Assembly: GCA_963657245.1 (NCBI GenBank)
Contig: CAVKLJ010000003.1
Span: 1,219 to 65,218, forward strand
Origin: Lachnospiraceae bacterium
GTDB taxonomy: Bacteria > Bacillota_I > Bacilli_A > RFN20 > CAG-826
Length of the DNA: 64,000 nt
Reading direction: 5' to 3'
The notes below the pieces were generated by a model, which worked only from the letters and a program-made list of their open reading frames with translations, had not been told where the DNA came from and did not search any database. The position numbers were made by a program, and so were the translations under genes. Position 1 is the first letter of the stretch; each line of letters starts with the position of its first letter. This document shows, piece after piece, positions 22,889-34,900 of the stretch.

Positions 22889-23889
22889 TGAAGTTTGAAG
22901 ACTATTTGCAAACATATCAGCCATTAGTTTATAGAACTTTTAGAAACGCCTTAGAAAGCGGAAAGATTGCTCACGCTTATCTTCTTTCCGGAGAAGGAGG
23001 CATTCCTCTTTTAGAGACCGCTAAATTCATTGCCAAGTCTCTTCTTTGCGATAATCCTTCCCCTCTTGCATGTAATTCCTGCCTCTCTTGCAAAAGAGTT
23101 GACCACGGAACATATGCAGACTTCATCATCTTAGATGGCAGAGAAGGCCAAATCAAAAAAGGCGATGTTCAAGAAATAGTCGGGGATTTTTCCAAGACCC
23201 CAATTGAGGCAAAAGGCATCATGATTTATATCATCAACCTCGTTGAGAATATGAATCTTCAAGCCATCAACTCTTTGCTTAAATTTCTTGAGGAGCCACC
23301 GGATAAAACCTATGCGATATTAACAACGGAAAACGAAACAAAAGTCTTACCAACAATCATTTCCCGTTGTGAGAAATTAAGAATGACCCTTGTTCCAAAG
23401 GAAACAATTAAAAACGAAGCAATAAGTCTAGGCGTAAAAGAGGAAGACGCAGAATTGCTCGTTAACTTCTATAACAATGCCGAAATCCTAAAAGAAAAAA
23501 GCCTAGATGATGGTTATCTTCTCCTAAAAGATCTTTGGTTAAAAACACTAGATACATTAGGAAACGATTTGTCTTTAGCTGTATTCACCTTTGAGAATCA
23601 AATAATACCAGCCTTAGCAAATTCGAAAAAAGCTTCGAACATGTTGAATGCATATTCATATCTAGATATGTTGGCTCTTGCCTTTAAAGATGCTATATCC
23701 AAAAAAGAAGGGCAAGCGATTTTCCTTAAAGGATATGACTCCTATATCGATAAAATTGCTTATCGTCTTCCACATTTAGAAACATCTTTAACCGAAATCC
23801 TAAAAATTCGTAGTATTCTTACTACTAACATCAACTCCTCATTGGCTTTGATGCATCTCATCTTGTTTATCACAGAGGAAAATATATGA
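22888..23889 (+). CDS. holB: DNA polymerase III subunit delta'
   Basis: HAYLLSG, Zn module C..C..C, SRC motif. Syntenic after tmk. Confidence 0.85.
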   Translation: MKFEDYLQTYQPLVYRTFRNALESGKIAHAYLLSGEGGIPLLETAKFIAKSLLCDNPSPLACNSCLSCKRVDHGTYADFIILDGREGQIKKGDVQEIVGDFSKTPIEAKGIMIYIINLVENMNLQAINSLLKFLEEPPDKTYAILTTENETKVLPTIISRCEKLRMTLVPKETIKNEAISLGVKEEDAELLVNFYNNAEILKEKSLDDGYLLLKDLWLKTLDTLGNDLSLAVFTFENQIIPALANSKKASNMLNAYSYLDMLALAFKDAISKKEGQAIFLKGYDSYIDKIAYRLPHLETSLTEILKIRSILTTNINSSLALMHLILFITEENI

Positions 23890-24911
23890 TCACAAATTTC
23901 ACTCACTTTGTCTCCGTCCGTTTCCCTAACGGTGAAAAATCCTACTACTTTGGAACAAACGATCCAGATTTAGAAGTAGGCACATATGTCATTGTCGATA
24001 CCGTTTCAGGTTTTGAAATGGGAATCGTCACGGCCGCTCCAATAAGCATGAAGCTTTATAATTCCAAATTAGAGCTTAAAGCCGTTATTCGTAAGGCCAA
24101 TAGTGAAGATTTAGAAGACTACGAAATGGCTAAGAAACAAGCTAGGGTTTCTCTTCAAATTGCTGATCGTGAAGCCAAGAAACTTAACCTTGGCATGACC
24201 TTTGTTGACGCTGGCTACACCCTTGATGGTTCAAAGATAACCATCACTTATACTGCCGATGGTCGCGTTGACTTCCGTGAATTATTAAGAGTATTGGCTG
24301 CTCAGCTTAAATGTAGAATCGAATTACATCAAATTGCCCCAAGAGATAAAGCCAAAGCCGTTGGTGGCTTAGGCATTTGTGGCCTTCCATTATGCTGTTC
24401 TACCTTCCTTAAATCGTTTGATGGCATCTCTATTTCGCGTGCTAAAAATCAGATGCTTACATTGAACATCCCTAAGCTTTCTGGCCAATGCGGAAGATTA
24501 AAATGCTGCCTTCTTTTTGAAGATGATATGTATACCGAAGCTAAGAAATCTTTTCCCCGCATCGGAGATAAAATTCATCTTCCTACAGGTGATTATACGG
24601 TAAGTTCATATAACATCATGTCTAGTTCAATCAAAGTCCAAAGTGAGGATGACGTGCAATTTCTTACCTTAGAGGAATATAACAAGATCTTGCATCCAAA
24701 CCTTGTAAAGCCTCAGCAAAAGAAAGATCAAAATAACAAGCAATCTTTCCAAAAGAAGGACAATCAACAACCTCAAAGAAAAGACAACCAACAGCAAAAG
24801 AGGGACAACCAACAAAATAACAAGCCTCAAAATAGAAACAACAATCAGCAAAGAAGAAATAATAACCGTCATCCAAATAACAAAAACAAAGGAAATCCTA
24901 ATAATGCTTAA
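23886..24911 (+). CDS. yaaT: PSP1-domain protein YaaT/RicT with Q/N/K-rich C-terminal tail
   Basis: PSP1 domain with Cys cluster (GICGLPLCCSTF...GQCGRLKCCL). Syntenic after holB (ATGA overlap). Confidence 0.85.
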   Translation: MITNFTHFVSVRFPNGEKSYYFGTNDPDLEVGTYVIVDTVSGFEMGIVTAAPISMKLYNSKLELKAVIRKANSEDLEDYEMAKKQARVSLQIADREAKKLNLGMTFVDAGYTLDGSKITITYTADGRVDFRELLRVLAAQLKCRIELHQIAPRDKAKAVGGLGICGLPLCCSTFLKSFDGISISRAKNQMLTLNIPKLSGQCGRLKCCLLFEDDMYTEAKKSFPRIGDKIHLPTGDYTVSSYNIMSSSIKVQSEDDVQFLTLEEYNKILHPNLVKPQQKKDQNNKQSFQKKDNQQPQRKDNQQQKRDNQQNNKPQNRNNNQQRRNNNRHPNNKNKGNPNNA

Positions 24912-25910: not shown

Positions 25911-28900
25911 ATGTCTATTAAATTAGATGATCTTGAAACATTTAAAAAACATAGAAATAAAATATCCGAGTCCTTGACAAGCGAATTTGTTGGTAGGCAA
26001 AAAGAAATAAATGACATTTGCAACCTGTTATCACAAAAAGATTTCGTCGCCATAACTGGTTCTGCAGGAATAGGTAAAAGCAGGTTAGCGGTGGCTGCAA
26101 TAGAAAAATATGTTTCCGAAAACAAAAACATTACGGTATTATGTGTCAAAAGCTTTGGCGATTATATATCAGCAATCGAAGACTCCATAGAAGATTCTAA
26201 AAAATATCTTTTCTTTATCGATGACGCAAATGACTACAAAAAACTTGGAGAGTTGATTGAGTGTTTGAACTATTGTAAACAAGACAATGTGAAAGCCGTT
26301 TTTACTGTTAGAGATTACCTAAAAGATTGCATTGATGATGAATCGATCGTTTTTTATGAAGTTCGTCCTCTTAATAACAAAGAAATCAAAGAAGTTATAA
26401 AAGAAAACACTCCTATTAAAAGTGATAAATGGTTGAATAAGATCGCAGATATTTCAAAAGGTAATGTAAGGCTTGCTTCTATAATTGCTGACGTTGCATT
26501 AAAAGATGAAAAGGACTTTGCTAGTCTCTTTAATGTCCAAAACATAATGAATTCTTTCTATAAAGAACAAATCGCTAAAATGAATGGTTCTAGCAATTTG
26601 TTAATTACGGCTGGAATAATTTCTTTCTTTAGAACCACCTATCTAAATCAGTTATTTTATATCTCGCCAATCTTAAAACTTGCTGGCATCACCAAACAAG
26701 AATTTTTACATTATGTTGATACCTTGATATCGATGGAATTAGTTGATGAATGCGTTGGCGTTGTCAAAATATCAGATCAATGCTTTGCCGACTATTTGCT
26801 CAATTACGTTTTCATCGAGAAAAAATACATAAAAATCAAAGATTTGATCGTGAGCACGTACAAATACTACGAAAAAAGAATAGTCGAATCATTGAATGCA
26901 ATTTTAAGCACATGTTTAACCGATGACTCAGTGTCTTATCTTAAAAATGAACTTCTCAATTCTTATTCTTCGATAGAAGATATTGAGTTAAAAAACAAGA
27001 TTGAAGTTGCTTTCGCACCGCTTACACTTGACCACGCTGCTATGGAATTTAAAAACGGGGTCGAAAGCTATTCTGACAAAAAAGATATCGGATGGCTTCT
27101 TGAATTATTTAAAACTCTCGCAAAAACGGAATATCAATCGGTAGCAAATGAAGGAATCATGCGTCTTTTAAAAAAGACGGGCACAAATAAAATACACGTG
27201 TTCAAAGCGATTGATGATGCATATTCGCTTGATTATGATAGCGTTAGATCATCTTTCGTGTATCTCGATTCTTTTGTTTGTTATTTAATCGATCACCGTA
27301 TCAATGATGAGCCTTTATTGTTATTAGTTTCATCTTATCTTAAATATTCGTTTAGAGATTCCAGGTTTATCGGCAATAAAAGACTCGAATTTTGCGCGTT
27401 TAATGTAAGAGACGATATGAGCAAAATCATACCTTTCAGAAGAAAATGTTGGGATTACATCTTTGAATATGGAAAGGATAAGTCGCTTGATGCAATCATT
27501 GATTTTGCCAAGTATCATATCGCGGAAGATAATCAAAAAATAATGCAATCTGATCTCGAAGCAATAAACAAACATTTAGAAAATCTAGAAAATAAAGATC
27601 TGATCTATGCAGTCTTATGTGAAGAGTTCAAAGATGATGCCAAAAATTATAACTTTGAGAATATGCTTTATTCGAGCGCAAAACATAGCGACATTCTCAA
27701 AATTATTTTGGAAAAACCTACGAACGGCCAAAATTATGAAACATTTGAAAAGTCACACGAAGAAAACGTGAAAAGTTTTTATGTGGCAAACAAGTCAAAC
27801 ATCTTTGAAAAAATAAGAAATATCGATCTAATCTCCAATTATTATGCACAAGATATCAAAAATTTCCTTTCGATACTTATTCATTATCTAGATGAATTCT
27901 CTTCATCCATCTTAAGTGTCTTCGTAAGATACAAGGTTCATCCACTTTCTGTTGTAGAAAAAGCCTCATCTATTGTTGAATTGGAAACTTTATATAATGA
28001 AATAAAATCAATAGATGACTCAACTATGAGAGAAGAATATTTGTATGCTTTTTATTCATACATTAACAGCCAAAATAATGAAAATCTTTTTGGGTTTGAA
28101 ACTTGGATAAAATCAAAGCAAGATTTGGATACGAAGCCTATTTTTGGAAGAAATTTGCTTTCTTTAAGACAAATATCAGAAAATTCAGGTATTTCGTACG
28201 TTAAGTTAGTGAAAATCATCTTGAAAAAGAGACAATATAACGACGTTATTGCAAAGGAATATCTATCATGCATGTTTTTCAAAGAAAACGCATTCAAAGA
28301 ACTACTTAATTTAGATAGAGATTTAGCAATAGCCATATATGAATTTCTAATAGACCACGCAGAAAATGATTATAAGAATAAAGCGCTTAAAGAAATTATC
28401 AGCCTCAAGAGAAACTATATCAAAACCTTTGCCATAAGATATCTAGATGCCGAAACGATCGATGAAAACGGCTTAGATGAAATCATTTTCGATGACGATA
28501 ACTATAAGTTATTCTTTGACACATGTATAAATGCAGGCAAGGAAAAACTTCCTTACTTCTTCCCCTTAAACTTGCAACGGTTTGTCTCACATCATTTAGG
28601 AAACCAAAAAATGCTCGATTGGATTGAAGGCTATATAGATAAAAATCGAAATGATAACAAAGCCATGGAATCACTGTTTTCTGTCCTGGCTAGAATTGAT
28701 GATAAATACAAGAATGGCTTTATTATTAAATATTATGAGAGAGGCAAGGACGAAGAAGTTTTAAAATGCGCTTTATCCAACGTATGTGTATCTTATTCGC
28801 TGAATTCTGCTGAATCTTATTTGACAATTAAGATAAAAAACCTAGCGTCCTTAAAAGCGAGTTTAATCAAATGGGACAATCTAAATCTGGTTTCTTTCAT

Positions 28901-29603
28901 TAATGAGCTAATAGAGGGGTACAAAGAAGATATAAAAAACAGCAAAGTTAGTAAACTAATCGAATACGTTGATCCGAGTTTGCTAAACGAGCTTCAAGAA
29001 ATTGATGTGAAGACAGAAATCTCGCTCGTTGATGCCTTTAGACTATATTCTGAAGATGAGAATTTCCGCAGGCTTCTCTCTTCCGGATATGTCGCATATA
29101 AAGATGGATGCTTCGTGACGAAATCGAACGTTCCTTTGAAGTTTGTCGATGTTTTAAAAGATAAAAAGATATTAGGGATAAAAACAATTCAAGCAAACGG
29201 AAGCGAGAAGGAGAAATATGAGAAATATTTATCTTCTTTAAGAATAATCGAAAAGATATTTAATGACAAAAAAATAGCAACTTTAGATGAGTGCCTTGCT
29301 AAACTTTTTGATGAACGAGGGTGGAGTGTAGAGGACTTTGAAAGAAAAACTTTTTTAAGCAGAGACATTTTTAGCAAAATCAAGAATAACAAAAGAAATA
29401 ATCTACAAAAAATCACAATTATAAAGATATTAATAGGGCTGAAACTGTCAAAAACCGAAAGAGACTTCTTGTTAGAACTTAATAACACTCAGCTCTCGGA
29501 ATTTGATAAGAATGATGTTCAATATAGTTTTATTCTTGATTCCAAAATCGATATAGGGATGGCTGACGAATTGCTAAAAAAATTAGGAAAAGATGGTTTT
29601 TAG
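25911..29603 (+). CDS. STAND-like P-loop NTPase with long helical middle region and C-terminal HTH module (1230 aa)
   Basis: FVGRQKE lead-in, Walker A GSAGIGKS (26058-26081), Walker B LFFIDDA (26208-26228), GxP-like SKGNVRLAS (~26457-26480). About 900 aa of K/E/N/I/L-rich sequence follow. The last ~110 aa (29268-29600) are an XRE-like HTH module paralogous to ORF 11002..11391. Confidence 0.75.
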   Translation: MSIKLDDLETFKKHRNKISESLTSEFVGRQKEINDICNLLSQKDFVAITGSAGIGKSRLAVAAIEKYVSENKNITVLCVKSFGDYISAIEDSIEDSKKYLFFIDDANDYKKLGELIECLNYCKQDNVKAVFTVRDYLKDCIDDESIVFYEVRPLNNKEIKEVIKENTPIKSDKWLNKIADISKGNVRLASIIADVALKDEKDFASLFNVQNIMNSFYKEQIAKMNGSSNLLITAGIISFFRTTYLNQLFYISPILKLAGITKQEFLHYVDTLISMELVDECVGVVKISDQCFADYLLNYVFIEKKYIKIKDLIVSTYKYYEKRIVESLNAILSTCLTDDSVSYLKNELLNSYSSIEDIELKNKIEVAFAPLTLDHAAMEFKNGVESYSDKKDIGWLLELFKTLAKTEYQSVANEGIMRLLKKTGTNKIHVFKAIDDAYSLDYDSVRSSFVYLDSFVCYLIDHRINDEPLLLLVSSYLKYSFRDSRFIGNKRLEFCAFNVRDDMSKIIPFRRKCWDYIFEYGKDKSLDAIIDFAKYHIAEDNQKIMQSDLEAINKHLENLENKDLIYAVLCEEFKDDAKNYNFENMLYSSAKHSDILKIILEKPTNGQNYETFEKSHEENVKSFYVANKSNIFEKIRNIDLISNYYAQDIKNFLSILIHYLDEFSSSILSVFVRYKVHPLSVVEKASSIVELETLYNEIKSIDDSTMREEYLYAFYSYINSQNNENLFGFETWIKSKQDLDTKPIFGRNLLSLRQISENSGISYVKLVKIILKKRQYNDVIAKEYLSCMFFKENAFKELLNLDRDLAIAIYEFLIDHAENDYKNKALKEIISLKRNYIKTFAIRYLDAETIDENGLDEIIFDDDNYKLFFDTCINAGKEKLPYFFPLNLQRFVSHHLGNQKMLDWIEGYIDKNRNDNKAMESLFSVLARIDDKYKNGFIIKYYERGKDEEVLKCALSNVCVSYSLNSAESYLTIKIKNLASLKASLIKWDNLNLVSFINELIEGYKEDIKNSKVSKLIEYVDPSLLNELQEIDVKTEISLVDAFRLYSEDENFRRLLSSGYVAYKDGCFVTKSNVPLKFVDVLKDKKILGIKTIQANGSEKEKYEKYLSSLRIIEKIFNDKKIATLDECLAKLFDERGWSVEDFERKTFLSRDIFSKIKNNKRNNLQKITIIKILIGLKLSKTERDFLLELNNTQLSEFDKNDVQYSFILDSKIDIGMADELLKKLGKDGF

Positions 29604-29795
29604 AAGAAAAATAAAAAAATATATTTCTAAAAAATACAAAATGACCATATAGGAGGACGAATTTATGAAAAACTGTTCAAAAAGCCCATAAACTCTGTAT
29701 TTTGATAAAATACGGGCATTTTTAAATCCTCTTTAGAATTTGGATAAGAACGCACTTAGATACGTTCAAATCTAAATATTACAGGAGGAAATAAA

Positions 29796-30452
29796 ATGTC
29801 TAAGACAATAATTGATGACGGTTATTCGTCATACCTAGTTGAAGGTGCTACCTTTGTAGGCAAGTACCAGATACCATCCATCCCCAAACATGATGTGATT
29901 CTCATCCCAAAGGACATGATTCCGTTCGACAAGAGGAATGTCGTGAAAGAAAGAGATCTAGCGATAGATTTCTACATGCACGATGTGACCTTCAGACAAG
30001 TTCTCACATCGACAAGTAAATACCTTGACGAACTATCAAGGTTTGCAGCCGTGATCTCACCAGACTGTTCCTTATATAGGGACATGCCGCTATGCTTACA
30101 GATAACCAACACCTATATGAATAGAGCTGTCGGCTTCTATCTTCAAAAGAATGGCTTGTATGTAATTCCGAACGTCAGATGGGGAGATGAAAGAAGCTTT
30201 GAATTCTGCTTCCAAGGACTTCCTACAAACGACATCGTATGTGTCAGCACGCATGGCTGCATCAAAGGCAAGGAAAACAAGTATTATTTCAGGCTAGGCT
30301 TAGAAGTAATGCTTAACATCTTGAAACCTCAGGTCGTGCTAGTGCATGGCTCAATGCCGGATGAAGTGTTCTCTAATTTCCTGAGCGAAACGAAGTTCGT
30401 CCATTACGAGAGCTATATCTCCAAGATGAGAGGAGGTAAGCACAATGGGTAG
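29796..30452 (+). CDS. DUF4417-like protein (218 aa)
   Basis: Strong SD AGGAGG at 29783-29788. VISPDCSLYRDMPLCLQITNTYMNRAVGFYLQKNGLYVIPNVRWGDERSF...VCVSTHGC resembles the DUF4417 consensus as I recall it. Visibly higher G+C than its neighbours. Confidence 0.65.
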   Translation: MSKTIIDDGYSSYLVEGATFVGKYQIPSIPKHDVILIPKDMIPFDKRNVVKERDLAIDFYMHDVTFRQVLTSTSKYLDELSRFAAVISPDCSLYRDMPLCLQITNTYMNRAVGFYLQKNGLYVIPNVRWGDERSFEFCFQGLPTNDIVCVSTHGCIKGKENKYYFRLGLEVMLNILKPQVVLVHGSMPDEVFSNFLSETKFVHYESYISKMRGGKHNG

Positions 30453-30930
30453 CGGAATATCTGGAAGTTATAGCGGAACAAAACCGACCGAAGCCTCTCA
30501 ACAATACGCAAAAAGTTATGGCGTGACTCCCGAAATGCTTAAATTTGACATCGACAGAGGAGTTTACAATGGATCGTACGAGAAGAATCCAACCGCGAAA
30601 AATATATATGATGTTATAAACGGCGAATATATAATTTCCGCAAAACGCGACAGATATTTAACGTATGTTATTGATATGAATGACAACATAATCGTTGCTG
30701 AGAGAAATGGTAATGGTTTTGGAGGCAAAGCCACACCACATCCGACTTTAATTGGTGGAAAAAATCCAAGGGTTAAGTTCGCAGGAATATTGCATCTAGA
30801 GGGAGGAAAAATCACTTCATATGATCATATGAGCGGCCATTATAAGCCAAACATTAAATCTATGAGTGTAGCTAAAAAAGCATTCGATAAATTGCCAAAC
30901 TATGTGTTTAAGGGAGGAAAGAAAAAATGA
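30445..30930 (+). CDS. small basic protein with His-motif C-terminal half, toxin-module-like (161 aa)
   Basis: GGAGG 8 nt upstream. The start overlaps the previous stop by 8 nt. Cys-free and K-rich, with motifs TPHPTLIGG, HLEGG and DHMSGHYKP. No family assigned. Confidence 0.55.
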   Translation: MGSGISGSYSGTKPTEASQQYAKSYGVTPEMLKFDIDRGVYNGSYEKNPTAKNIYDVINGEYIISAKRDRYLTYVIDMNDNIIVAERNGNGFGGKATPHPTLIGGKNPRVKFAGILHLEGGKITSYDHMSGHYKPNIKSMSVAKKAFDKLPNYVFKGGKKK

Positions 30931-31379
30931 TAAAAATTGAAAATAAAATTTTAAAAAAAATGTTTAATTCTGATTATTGGAAAATGAGTAATGACGAGTT
31001 GGCGAAACTTGAGGAACAAGCTAATTCCATTTTGCAGAAAAACTCATGGAGTGATGTTTACGAAAACCTTGACTTCTTTTTGAGAAATGAATGTAAGACA
31101 GAGGACGATGTGATTAACTTTGTTCATTTTTTCGTGCATTATTACGGATTAAAATTTCAAATCCCTAGTCAATACGATCCATATGACCTAATAGGATATA
31201 TCCTATCGATGGTCAATTTGGAAAAAAGATGGGACGATTGTGGAGGCTTGTTTGATGACTTTGCTAATCAAGCCTTAAGAATTGATTTATATAATGACCC
31301 TTATTATCAATTTTGGAGAGATCCAAAAATTCTAGCCATTGCAGAAAAGTATAAGGAGAAAAAGAATGGACTACATTAG
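30927..31379 (+). CDS. small acidic Trp-rich protein, immunity/antitoxin-like (150 aa)
   Basis: ATGA stop/start overlap with the preceding basic ORF. GGGAGG SD. D/E- and W/Y/F-rich sequence that looks helical. No family assigned. Confidence 0.5.
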   Translation: MIKIENKILKKMFNSDYWKMSNDELAKLEEQANSILQKNSWSDVYENLDFFLRNECKTEDDVINFVHFFVHYYGLKFQIPSQYDPYDLIGYILSMVNLEKRWDDCGGLFDDFANQALRIDLYNDPYYQFWRDPKILAIAEKYKEKKNGLH

Positions 31380-31917
31380 ATTATCAAAGGAAATCTCATA
31401 TGCATTAAGACATGCACCATGGGAATACGAGCTTGAGCTCGATGAGAATGGTTTCGTTTCCATCAAGCAATTGCTCCATTCTCTGAACTCATCAAACGAG
31501 TATGACAGAGAAATAACAAAAGAAGATTTAGAATACATTATCTCTTGCTCAGATAAGAAGAGGCACGAAATAGTCGGAGATAAAATTAGAGCGCTTTACG
31601 GCCATTCTATTCCAACAAAAATCGAGAAAACTACTGCAATTCCACCGGATATTCTATATCACGGTACAGCAAAGAGATTCCTTGATTCCATAATGAAAGA
31701 TGGATTACTTCCAATGAAGAGACAATACGTTCATCTAAGCGTAGATACGGATATGGCAACACTTGTCGGAAAAAGGAGAGATCATAATCCAATAATTCTT
31801 GTGATTGATGCTAAAACTGCATCAAAGGACGGAATAAAATTCTATATTGGAAACGACAAAGTCTGGCTTTGCGATAAGATGCCTGCAAAATATATCAAGA
31901 TCCTAGAGAACGACTAA
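31366..31917 (+). CDS. kptA: RNA 2'-phosphotransferase KptA/Tpt1 family
   Basis: Start set at ATG 31366 behind AAGGAG (MDYIRLSKEISYALRH...). Collinear with E. coli KptA: LRH, SDKKR, GHS, LYHGT..RFL, RxYVHLS. All four catalytic R-H-R-R positions are present. Confidence 0.88.
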   Translation: MDYIRLSKEISYALRHAPWEYELELDENGFVSIKQLLHSLNSSNEYDREITKEDLEYIISCSDKKRHEIVGDKIRALYGHSIPTKIEKTTAIPPDILYHGTAKRFLDSIMKDGLLPMKRQYVHLSVDTDMATLVGKRRDHNPIILVIDAKTASKDGIKFYIGNDKVWLCDKMPAKYIKILEND

Positions 31918-31939
31918 TTTAAAATCCTGAGCAAAAAAA

Positions 31940-34900
31940 TTAATCCAGTTCTTTTTTCTTTTTGTGAATATGATAAACGAATCTACCAATCGTATATGTG
32001 GCAATCGAAACGGTTGCAACACTTGCAAGAATACATCCTTCTTTTAAATAAGGAGTCTCATATTTCATAACGTAGGTTTGTTCACCTTCTGGAGCTAAGA
32101 AGCCAACAAATCCACCATCGAGTTTATAAGTCTTACAAGCCTTGGTAACACCATCTTTTGAAGTTGCAGTAACTTTCCATCCTGCATCATATCCTAAAGC
32201 AGTTACAACAAGCTTCTTTGAAGAGAAGTTAGATGAAAATGTTGCTTTATTTGTAGAGTAGGTCGCATTGGTTAATGCGTATTCCTCGCTTTGATATTTA
32301 TGATAGAAAGCTTCGATATCGCTACGATTTGCAACATACACTCCATATGTTCCAGGAATAGTCGCAACCGCATCATTAATTCCAGGATTGCTAAAATCAC
32401 TTGGTTTAGCGTTTAAACAGATATATTTAACTTTGCCTTTTGGATAGAAACCAAATACATCCGCGGAGGTTGATCCACCAACTCTCTTTGAAGAATATGT
32501 GCTTAACGTATTGTAATCATAAGATAAGAGTTGATCTTGATGAATTACGCCATTCTCATCGGTATAGTCTCCAATCAAATAAACACGAGTTTTATAAGAA
32601 GAAGATGAAGCAACGTTAAACATCAAAGAAATATAAGCGCCGCTCCAATCTGAATTGAAATAGGTATCTCCATTTGCTGGAGTAAAGACAACCGTTTCAT
32701 AATCAGGAACATAATCATTTCCATTTGTACGGATAGAATCGTAATGTTTCAAGAAATATGTAACGCCATATGTTTTCTTATCTGATTCAGAATAACCAAT
32801 GAAGTTTGTGTTGGTGTGTCTATAGATCTTTTTCTTCAAGGATATTTGTTTTAAAAGAGTAGACGCATCAGGGGCTGAAGAAACCACAAATCCTTCATCT
32901 TTTAAAGAATCAATATCTTCATCTTTAACTATCGCTCCAGAGGTATAAACCTCCTCGTTACGATTGATTTCATTGAAAACTCCACTGGCGGATAAATTCA
33001 CTTTATAGAAATCATCTTTATAGGAATTGCTTCCGTCTTTGTTTTCTTTGTAAATGTAATCAACGGCATGTCCAAAACTATTTTCGTTAACAAGTGAAGA
33101 AGAATAGAAACGTAAAGCACTCTTTTCATCTCCATAAACTAACTTGGAATCCCATGGGACGTTGTCGCTATTGAGATATTTATCGTTTTCTTCGTTAACG
33201 ATGCAGCTTTCCCAATCGCCATATCCTTCATTCTTGATGCCGTAATATTTGATATTGAAGGCAACGTCTGCCCCCACGCGTTTATTGCCATAATATGCCG
33301 ACCAAGATTTGTTGTAATAGGTCTGTCCATAAGCGGTCCCTTCATATTCGTGTCTATTCATATGCGAATATAAGGCGAGTTGGTTTACATCGTAATTAAA
33401 CAATGAGTGGAAATTGCTTGTTCCATTGAAATCAAACACTTCCTGAGCGTTATTCTCTGGCATACCTTCAATGAAAGCGCGGTAATAAGTATTTCCGTCA
33501 AAAGAGTTAATTTCTTTAAACGCGTTTGTCACGCAGTTTCTATAGGAAATTCCACCATTCCAATTGTTGTAATTCCAAGTGCCCATATAGGCAAAGGACG
33601 CATTGCCCCAAATAATGGTTTCAACCATGACTATGCCGCCAAGGATCTTAAGCAACAATTCTTTCTTTTTCACGAAAAGAATGATCAATCCAACAACGAA
33701 GTCCATTCCAAGTTGGAAATAAACAATCCATAGAGTCGAATATCCACTTACGACCGAAGGAACACTATATCTAGTAACCCAATATGTCGTTAATGATGTC
33801 TCAAATGTTTTATCTTTAAGAACGACAATACAAAGAATCCAAGTAAGAGTTGCTAAGAATAAAGAAAGGGCAGCCCCACTAATTGGAACCCATTTAGGTT
33901 CATCTTTTAATCTATCTAACTCCTGGCAAGCGTAATAGATGATGATTGGAACAAGAACGATATACCATCTTCCATATCCATCACCTGTAAAGGCATAGAA
34001 GAAATAATAAGCGAAATCAGTAAAGACCAAATAGGCGACCAATATAAAAGCAATTATGTGTGAAACTTTCTTTCTTCTGATTGAAGAAACAAAGGCAATC
34101 CAGAACATAACAACCATTGGGGTATAGCAGAAAAGGGACGCAACCCAAGCATCATATTGAATGCCACCACTAGAAGTCATACCACTTGCAACAGGTAAGG
34201 CTAAATAACCATATGTAGGATAGAAAAATCCAATTAACCCCTGTAATTCCCTGCCAGGATGTTGCCCAACTAATTCAAATAGACGAGCAAATAGAGTTTT
34301 TCCATCCAATGTTTTTATGGCAGTAAGTAAAGAGTTTAAGTAAGCCGCACCAATCGAAGTTGTTCTTCCTGTAAGAGATGATTCCCTTAACGAAGGGAAA
34401 AGACTCCAGGAGCATAACATGATTCCACATGCGAAAGACATAACCCCTAAAAGAATTACAAAAATATTATCTTTCCAATTGCGTTTCTTGATTGTCCAAA
34501 GGTATCTCCAAATGGCATATATAACACCGAAGATGCAAATAACCACAAGGAAGAAGAAAGACATAAGTCCAAGCAAAGCTAAGGAAATCGATAAGGTGAT
34601 TATTTTCTTTTCTTTGATAACTTTCTCGATGCCTAAAAGAACAAGCGGAACCATTGAACAAACGGAAACAACCGAAGGGAAACCAACCATAAAGTTCAAA
34701 TATCCATTGAAAGCAAAAGCAAGGCCACCAACTCTAGCTGATCCTTCGCTAACACCAAGATACTTAAGATAGGCTCTTGTTGCTAACGCTCCGACAACTC
34801 CTTTAAAGAAGGTTGCAATGACAAAAGTCTGAGGAATTATTGAGCGTGGAAAAATATAACAAATAATCAAGAATGGATCGAATAAGCCATAGTAGGAATT

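Follow-up and report, generated by a model that had tools for sequence, protein, structure and literature searches.

A DUF4417-headed gene cassette with a stand-alone polymorphic-toxin domain, a predicted immunity protein and the RNA 2'-phosphotransferase KptA in a Lachnospiraceae bacterium

We found, in a 64,000-nucleotide stretch of a Lachnospiraceae bacterium genome (assembly GCA_963657245.1, contig CAVKLJ010000003.1, positions 1,219 to 65,218 of the forward strand; hereafter the window), a small operon whose two central genes, here called X and Y, very probably encode a real toxin and its antidote. The 161-residue protein X (30445..30930, + strand) is, as profile searches and domain architectures indicate, a stand-alone copy of an uncharacterised polymorphic-toxin domain, and the acidic, 150-residue protein Y (30927..31379, +), which belongs to no known family, is by its gene slot the predicted cognate immunity protein of X. 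The pair stands behind a DUF4417 gene (218 residues; 29796..30452, +; PF14386, E 1.4e-53), the constant head gene of the cassette, and before a gene for the RNA 2'-phosphotransferase KptA/Tpt1 (183 residues; 31366..31917, +; PF01885, E 3.5e-42), for which we predict a role in catalytic repair or as a second immunity gene. Taken as a whole, it seems likely to us that X is a stand-alone toxin domain with Y as its cognate immunity, that both belong to a DUF4417-headed cassette with KptA, and that X acts as an RNA-damaging, metal-independent enzyme. The toxin-immunity part of this reading appears well supported by the comparisons presented below, and the chemistry of X is what we infer from its conserved residues and its gene neighbourhood.

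By comparison with their homologs X and Y are genuine genes, because relatives of both are present in a 90%-clustered protein collection (111 for X, with identities down to 39%, and 34 for Y, down to 54%, none with a functional name) and because their gene order is kept in about 80 species. An earlier sequence-only reading of this DNA had described a Lys-rich, Cys-free protein coupled to an acidic, aromatic-rich one, and the recomputed composition agrees: X has an isoelectric point of 9.61, 19 Lys and no Cys, Y has an isoelectric point of 5.06 and 25 aromatic residues (4 Trp, 11 Tyr and 10 Phe), and the stop codon of X and the start codon of Y share the ATGA at 30927-30930. Ribosome-binding sites of GGAGG type lie about 8 nucleotides 5' of X and of Y. 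The DUF4417 stop and the X start overlap by 8 nucleotides and the KptA start and the Y end by 14, and the overlapping genes from DUF4417 to KptA form one same-strand run with a STAND NTPase gene.

The X domain in polymorphic toxins

A profile of X was built from 28 homologs and scored against 1.84 billion representative proteins, and it matched 979 of them, 88 with an E-value of 1e-30 or lower. The X core (profile positions ~20-160) was in many cases placed at the extreme C-terminus, in carriers between 250 and 7535 residues long, and a Pfam scan revealed what these carriers are: P0163 and P0230 combine the domain with DUF6531 and RHS repeats, P0271 carries RHS and PT-HINT, the latter ending at residue 1012, where X begins, and the domain is also found in six eCIS_core (DUF4157-type) proteins. 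A C-terminal toxin domain on carriers of the Rhs, PT-HINT or eCIS type is the arrangement by which delivered polymorphic toxins are defined (Zhang et al. 2012, PMC3482391). X, whose core closes proteins of the Rhs, PT-HINT and eCIS-core kinds, is therefore a polymorphic-toxin domain, just as the sequence-only reading had supposed when it likened X to the C-terminal modules of such toxins. The family is unnamed, because Pfam covers the domain in none of these carriers. Neither X nor Y could be placed in a family by that reading, and our searches leave them equally unplaced, with nothing meaningful in Pfam, NCBIfam, PADLOC or PHROGs and chance matches only against PDB sequences, for single proteins as for profiles.

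In the eCIS_core proteins P0228, P0233, P0236, P0240, P0243 and P0248, the X domain is internal, standing behind the eCIS core, and is followed by ~100-320 residues without a Pfam match, possibly a second toxin or a targeting module.

The predicted immunity slot behind X

The gene that follows X was compared in two sets of loci, the genes of the fetched loci being simple open reading frame calls. A genomic set comprises 77 X genes, from 76 species genomes and the window. A homolog search with P0271 returned two fused proteins only, and a metagenome scan aimed at fused forms was used instead, which yielded 81 X genes and 66 loci with a downstream gene. In the genomic loci, Y follows X directly in 65 of 77, often with a 4-nucleotide overlap, and a protein of 120-135 residues, Y', does so in 8 (together 73 of 77), and in the metagenomic loci the following gene is a DUF6960-like one in 40 of 66, behind long fused X toxins, and Y in 19 (together 59 of 66). 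Y' is a divergent DUF6960 protein, which Pfam PF22283 matches and which hhalign aligns at 97.7% and E 1.5e-12 with the DUF6960 gene after the Rhs-type toxin P0271. For Y itself there is no Pfam match to DUF6960 (PF22283), and the view that it is a divergent DUF6960 was rejected at a family-to-family hhalign probability of 0.2%; HTH (helix-turn-helix), RHH (ribbon-helix-helix) and AbrB domains found no Pfam match in Y either. Such an exchange of unrelated small families in one slot is typical of immunity genes, which is the capacity we would assign to Y and to the DUF6960-like proteins.

A tree of 135 X domains consists of two clades with 99% local support. One holds the fused forms and the forms without DUF4417, partnered by DUF6960-like genes, and the other holds the DUF4417-linked forms, whose partner is mostly Y. 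Across the 135 tips the immunity type changes 5 times, fewer than in any of 500 label shuffles, a result that shows clustering and is no proof of co-evolution, since related genomes share labels. An immunity type that tracks the toxin clade fits cognate immunity. We thus predict that Y is the cognate immunity protein of X, given that Y and an unrelated DUF6960-like protein alternate in the slot in step with the toxin clade. The likeness of Y to Imm proteins, which the first inspection of the sequence had noted, gains in substance by the occupation of this slot by Y across loci. Y paralogs stand in tandem at two loci (L014 and L038).

KptA in X cassettes

Of the 77 genomic loci, 25 have KptA no more than three genes away from X, and in 22 it is the gene directly behind the immunity gene; all 8 Y'-type cassettes of the genomic set possess it. 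In the slot after the immunity gene it is the sole recurrent family, present in 28 loci as against 18 unrelated singletons, and it is scattered over both clades of the X tree. Because long fused toxins without DUF4417 also have KptA behind their immunity gene (e.g. L126, L137 and L157), the link is to the X toxin and not to DUF4417 or to one immunity family. Among ~25 DUF4417 cassettes without X, whose flanks are short, no KptA was seen. All 47 distinct cassette-linked KptA copies keep R15, H16, R66 and R119, which constitute the Arg-His-Arg-Arg tetrad of KptA/Tpt1 as defined in PMC6333775, together with H99-G100-T101, the HGT NAD+ motif.

Within 61 sampled genomes of the bacterial family, KptA was found only in the X cassette and in one decayed X-KptA scar. 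Judged by this distribution, KptA is no housekeeping gene of the lineage but accompanies X. The presence of Tpt1/KptA in bacteria that have no known 2'-phosphate RNA synthesis is a longstanding conundrum, as its chemistry is specific for 2'-phosphomonoesters and a bacterial source of such RNA is not known (PMC6333775). KptA has been read as a clean-up enzyme for the 2'-phosphate or cyclic-phosphate ends that metal-independent endoRNases produce (Iyer et al. 2022, PMC9503650). We found no literature that links KptA to a toxin-immunity pair, and none on DUF6960.

The scar mentioned above (L206:1465-1656, - strand) belongs to a genome of the same genus (G094:C4) and lies at a site different from that of the window. 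It is a frame of 64 codons, in which the first 19 residues correspond to X profile positions 88-106 and residues 15-59 to the KptA C-terminus (133-177) in an in-frame fusion, and it looks like the deletion scar of a former X-Y-KptA cassette.

Conserved residues and candidate chemistry of X

R87, H99, P100, A113, G131 and H132 are identical in all of 77 fused proteins (100%), and S130 in 99% of them. No acidic position is invariant (D77 reaches 88%), nor is any acidic or Cys/His metal ligand conserved. The candidate catalytic residues R87 (30703-30705), H99 (30739-30741) and H132 (30838-30840, all +) provide the His/Arg/Lys acid-base set without metal ligands that is expected of a metal-independent endoRNase. 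Three closely spaced His motifs (TPHPTLIGG, ILHLEGG and DHMSGHYKP) had been singled out in the sequence-only reading, and they do contain all four His of X (99, 117, 128 and 132); the family, however, keeps only H99 and H132 and adds R87 to them, while H117 is variable and position 128 is mostly Asn in relatives. An invariant Arg/His/His set without a fully conserved acidic residue suggests metal-independent phosphoryl-transfer chemistry on RNA. This set, the missing conservation of acidic metal ligands and the specific association with KptA lead us to read X as a metal-independent enzyme that would cleave RNA or modify RNA ends, and a metal-independent RNase is our best guess.

The AlphaFold2 model of X, with a predicted local distance difference test score (pLDDT) of 83.6 and a predicted template modelling score of 0.79, comprises an N-terminal helix, two beta-hairpins on either side of the PHPTLIGG loop and a C-terminal helix. 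The order of these elements could also accommodate a His-Me finger (beta-beta-alpha-metal) or other metal-dependent DNase, whose resulting 5'-phosphate ends KptA would cap with ADP-ribose: the hairpin 112-126 is succeeded by the invariant region S130-G131-H132 and a helix at 137-148, Asn48 and Asn128 are 97% conserved in the fused forms, and bacterial Tpt1 ADP-ribosylates 5'-phosphorylated RNA and DNA ends in vitro (PMC8120803; PMC11833690). However, the conserved His comes after the second strand of the hairpin and not at the end of the first, Pfam has no HNH, Endo VII or other nuclease family match at E < 1, Foldseek matches none of the many solved His-Me nucleases, and the acidic or Cys/His ligands that would hold a metal are not conserved. 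We consider such a DNase, and with it the beta-beta-alpha-type nuclease that had been offered for X beforehand, to be improbable.

With a still smaller chance of being right, X might install a phosphate-containing modification such as a 2'-phosphate on RNA or on a nucleotide cofactor without any cutting, which KptA would then reverse directly. This would agree with the association of KptA with X and not with other toxins of DUF4417 cassettes, an EndoU RNase included, and with the specificity of Tpt1 for 2'-phosphomonoesters, of which bacteria have no known RNA source. A domain of ~140 residues without a P-loop, conserved acidic residues or a recognisable NTP-binding motif is, however, an unlikely kinase, and we know of no precedent for it.

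The DUF4417 head gene, the leader and the cassette

DUF4417 stands directly 5' of X in 63 of the 77 genomic loci, in Clostridia, Bacilli, Bacteroidales, Treponema, Fibrobacter, Lentisphaerae, Planctomycetes, Anaerolineae and Actinobacteria, mostly from gut or rumen, and the order DUF4417-X-Y is kept across at least eight phyla. Among the carriers that can be cultured are Butyrivibrio sp. INlla18 and MC2013, Mobilibacterium timonense and Bifidobacterium aesculapii DSM 26737 (loci L014, L027, L064 and L087). What had at first been taken for an orphan pair is thus no orphan, because a conserved operon DUF4417-X-Y(-KptA) surrounds it, frequently accompanied by a regulator (STAND-HTH or XRE). Of the 77 loci, 15 have a homologous STAND gene no more than three genes from X, and XRE or ImmA-type regulators adjoin X cassettes at others. 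The STAND (nSTAND3-type) NTPase of the window (1230 residues; 25911..29603, +; Pfam nSTAND3, E 2.7e-9) has a C-terminal XRE-type HTH, with weak HTH_26/HTH_19 matches at residues 1129-1180, and could serve as sensor or regulator of the operon behind it. Regulation of the cassettes seems to be left to separate HTH or STAND genes.

X begins with a Gly/Ser-rich leader (residues 1-25, MGSGISGSYSGT...SQQYAKSY; 30445..30519, +), in which M1, G2, S3, Y9, S18, Q19 and Y25 are invariant among stand-alone X proteins and which is predicted to be disordered, residues 1-15 of the model having a pLDDT below 50. Behind another DUF4417 gene stands an EndoU_bacteria toxin (E 5e-11), with which X can be aligned over the first ~25 residues alone, at 40% identity. 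Among 28 distinct proteins encoded downstream of DUF4417, 15 have a strict MG[GS..][GRK] start and most others a close variant, and their C-terminal parts differ. A constant N-terminal region with interchangeable toxin domains is thereby present, as the leader is common to X and to the EndoU toxin. We propose that this ~25-residue Gly-rich leader marks the toxins of DUF4417 cassettes, and these cassettes would behave as a polymorphic toxin class of their own. The earlier remark that X has no secretion or trafficking domain holds in so far as neither a signal peptide nor a Pfam trafficking domain was found in X, nor secretion genes among its neighbours in the window, the whole genome not having been scanned for secretion systems; it does not hold for the N-terminus, where X has a conserved leader in common with an unrelated toxin.

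Of 401 genomes sampled from the phylum, 36 have DUF4417, often with more than one copy each. Its AlphaFold2 model (pLDDT 90.9) has an alternating beta/alpha fold, and Foldseek gave weak matches to TIM-barrel enzymes only (PdxJ, tRNA-guanine transglycosylase and sugar epimerases, best E 8e-3); as these are too weak, no function was assigned from them. The domain is phage-enriched and in phages often fused to ParB-like domains (bioRxiv 10.1101/2025.10.10.680097), and it matches PHROGs as well. In the literature we found it described as a phage-enriched ParB-like partner or as an unannotated phage gene, with no function assigned. Phage-borne X cassettes were considered and rejected, as a search of 2.9 million viral contigs for X found none besides two weak giant-virus matches.

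Two further explanations can be judged against this cassette structure. Since the X domain is common to large polymorphic toxins and X has no signal peptide or delivery domain, the pair could be a silent orphan toxin-immunity module that is kept only as recombination stock or as acquired immunity. We hold this to be very unlikely: X has its own start codon, a strong Shine-Dalgarno sequence, the conserved leader and translational coupling to DUF4417, it is single-copy in a source genome in which no full-length X-bearing toxin was found, and the DUF4417-X-Y order persists across phyla. Hardly credible, even with an enzyme-like barrel fold for DUF4417 and a metabolic-type enzyme in KptA, is the idea that X and Y are subunits of a harmless accessory enzyme that works with these two in nucleotide or RNA metabolism, because the ends of Rhs, PT-HINT and eCIS proteins are an architecture reserved for delivered toxins, because two unrelated families in the second slot are typical of immunity and not of enzyme subunits, and because the slot behind DUF4417 also holds a known EndoU toxin.

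Several loci depart from the common arrangement. The source genome has two further DUF4417 genes (L092:49-1151, - strand, contig C43, and L093:1180-2619, + strand, contig C2), each of which overlaps a different small downstream gene, one of 130 residues and one of 149 residues with a His-rich C-terminus that is succeeded by an 81-residue gene; neither toxin matched Pfam, and the two loci are probably independent DUF4417 toxin-immunity cassettes. At L001:7352-13818 (DUF4417-X-Y-STAND-X'-Y') and at L011, from a Christensenella metagenome-assembled genome (MAG), a single STAND NTPase gene lies between two different X-Y pairs. The second pair of L011 has its own DUF4417, and the two X copies fall into different subclades of the tree, which suggests that cassettes were stacked around the STAND regulator. 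A permuted order, in which X-Y precedes DUF4417, is seen in some Bacteroidaceae, Ruminococcus and Bifidobacterium (L069:5842-8798, where it occurs twice in tandem, L065 and L087). Adjoining an X cassette at L007:6213-8952 are genes for an XRE HTH protein, an ImmA/IrrE-type M78 peptidase, DUF4417, and proteins of 148 and 191 residues; the XRE protein and the M78 peptidase would be a regulator pair of the stress-switch type that heads a second, different DUF4417 cassette. In one X subclade from Bacilli, Enteromonas and Anaerolineae MAGs (L056, L060, L061 and L063), a recurring pair of small genes (~128-138 and 177 residues) lies directly 5' of DUF4417 and may likewise be a regulator pair.

Proposed mechanism

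From homology, domain architectures, gene order and co-occurrence we infer toxicity, X-Y binding, an RNA target and roles for KptA and DUF4417, in the following way. Y would be made from the same transcript as X through translational coupling and would neutralise X, most likely by direct binding. X itself could damage RNA, either by cleaving it or by modifying its ends, and would leave 2'-phosphate or cyclic-phosphate behind. KptA might then remove that phosphate with NAD+, serving as a catalytic back-up to the stoichiometric Y and healing residual damage in the manner of the enzymatic immunity that PARGs provide against RhsP2. In an intracellular variant of this mechanism, X would act in abortive-infection or addiction style and be switched by the STAND-HTH protein here, or by XRE or ImmA-type regulators elsewhere; in an alternative variant, X would be released against neighbours. 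The occurrence of the cassette in both monoderm and diderm carriers, without a secretion gene, slightly favours an intracellular role or release by lysis.

As a wider proposal, which we regard as possible rather than probable, X toxins may generally yield 2'-phosphorylated RNA, through cleavage or direct modification, with KptA/Tpt1 as their catalytic antidote, and the cassette may represent an undescribed polymorphic toxin class, the leader of which is handled by DUF4417.

Several observations weigh against the likely reading of X as an RNA-damaging toxin with Y and KptA as its antidotes. Foldseek of the X model against PDB found nothing significant (best E 0.12), so that an RNase fold is not shown, and against BFVD it found two unnamed viral proteins only (G8DGH9 and E5EQ39). 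Similarity of X to a known RNase family was absent from Pfam, NCBIfam, PDB sequences and Foldseek, and from hhalign against EndoU beyond the leader; a divergent EndoU was accordingly rejected as the identity of X, as hhalign aligns the leader alone. KptA occurs in only about a third of the X loci and is thus not required, and a kinase, a ligase or a 2H phosphoesterase that could complete RNA repair was not found in the operon. An immunity protein expressed together with the toxin makes intracellular killing non-obvious, and with no signal peptide and no adjacent secretion genes a role in export is non-obvious as well. The co-occurrence counts, finally, describe related genomes and metagenome fragments; they are not independent and do not amount to statistical tests.

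Comparison with known systems

X and Y resemble polymorphic toxin systems (PMC3482391) in having X as the C-terminal cassette, a small, fast-changing gene next to it, tandem immunity paralogs and a constant N-terminal part. Unlike in those systems, the toxin is here a free protein of 161 residues, has no repeat shell, signal peptide or nearby secretion-system gene, and is coupled to DUF4417; nor does X match any Pfam toxin family. Judged by architecture, the pair has the features of a polymorphic toxin-immunity pair except for a recognisable trafficking domain. The combination of a DUF4417 head gene and a leader most resembles, alongside the MuF toxins of phages, the three-component logic of the S8 polymorphic toxin systems (S8-PTS; Li, Tan and Zhang 2022, PMC9424270). 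In these, however, the accessory protein is an S8 subtilase and the toxins have a signal peptide and a BetaH domain, whereas the cassette described here has a cytoplasmic-looking DUF4417 barrel and a short Gly-rich leader. With the MuF polymorphic toxins of temperate phages (PMC12226406) it has in common the lack of a classical secretion signal and a tie to mobile or phage genes, DUF4417 being phage-enriched, but the locus has no MuF domain and does not lie in a prophage.

Bacterial PARGs protect against RhsP2, and bifunctional immunity of the Tri1 type is cited alongside them (PMC11833690). In both cases an enzyme that reverses the lesion is encoded beside, or instead of, a binding immunity protein, which is the role we propose for KptA. 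Those enzymes remove ADP-ribose, whereas KptA removes a 2'-phosphate with NAD+, and here its link to a toxin is suggested by gene order alone. The RNA end-healing modules in which KptA is found (PMC9503650) also hold ligases, 2H or Macro enzymes, whereas KptA has no such companions in the present cassette, where it follows a toxin-immunity pair. Type II toxin-antitoxin and abortive-infection systems are similar in their small, coupled basic/acidic pair, their HTH or STAND neighbours and their patchy horizontal distribution. Both differ from the present system, in which the toxin comes first, Y matches no DNA-binding domain, the toxin domain is also used in exported weapons, and PADLOC gave no meaningful match, with chance-level partial matches only for X, Y and the STAND protein (E 7e-4 or weaker) and none for DUF4417 and KptA. 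Distinctive of the cassette are the DUF4417 head with its short leader, the replacement of the immunity gene by a non-homologous one, and KptA as a companion.

Neither the X family, with its 979 profile matches, nor its two immunity families (Y and DUF6960-like) has been named, structurally solved or described in the literature. Rhs and eCIS weapons use the X family, and so do free-standing cassettes of gut and rumen bacteria from at least eight phyla. If the proposed role of KptA is true, bacterial Tpt1/KptA would gain its first physiological context, namely defence against, or reset after, a specific toxin family, and it may exist in many genomes as an antidote to X toxins. The triad of toxin, immunity protein and KptA would then open a cheap experimental route to the question of why bacteria keep Tpt1/KptA. 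The DUF4417-headed cassettes, of which the present one is a well-resolved example, give a first functional context to a domain widespread in phages and bacteria, and point to a mode of toxin handling that would work in monoderm and diderm bacteria alike.

Surroundings of the locus

The locus is flanked by housekeeping genes and is not within a prophage. The G+C content is 43% in DUF4417 and 31-38% in the STAND, X, Y and KptA genes, that of the whole window being 37%. An Rfam scan of 29300-32300 returned nothing, and a promoter and terminator scan gave no convincing site on the + strand. Further 5' in the window, a YaaT/PSP1-like protein (23886-24911) ends in a low-complexity tail of ~70 residues, rich in Gln, Asn and Lys, which extends past the start of the following gene (24904).

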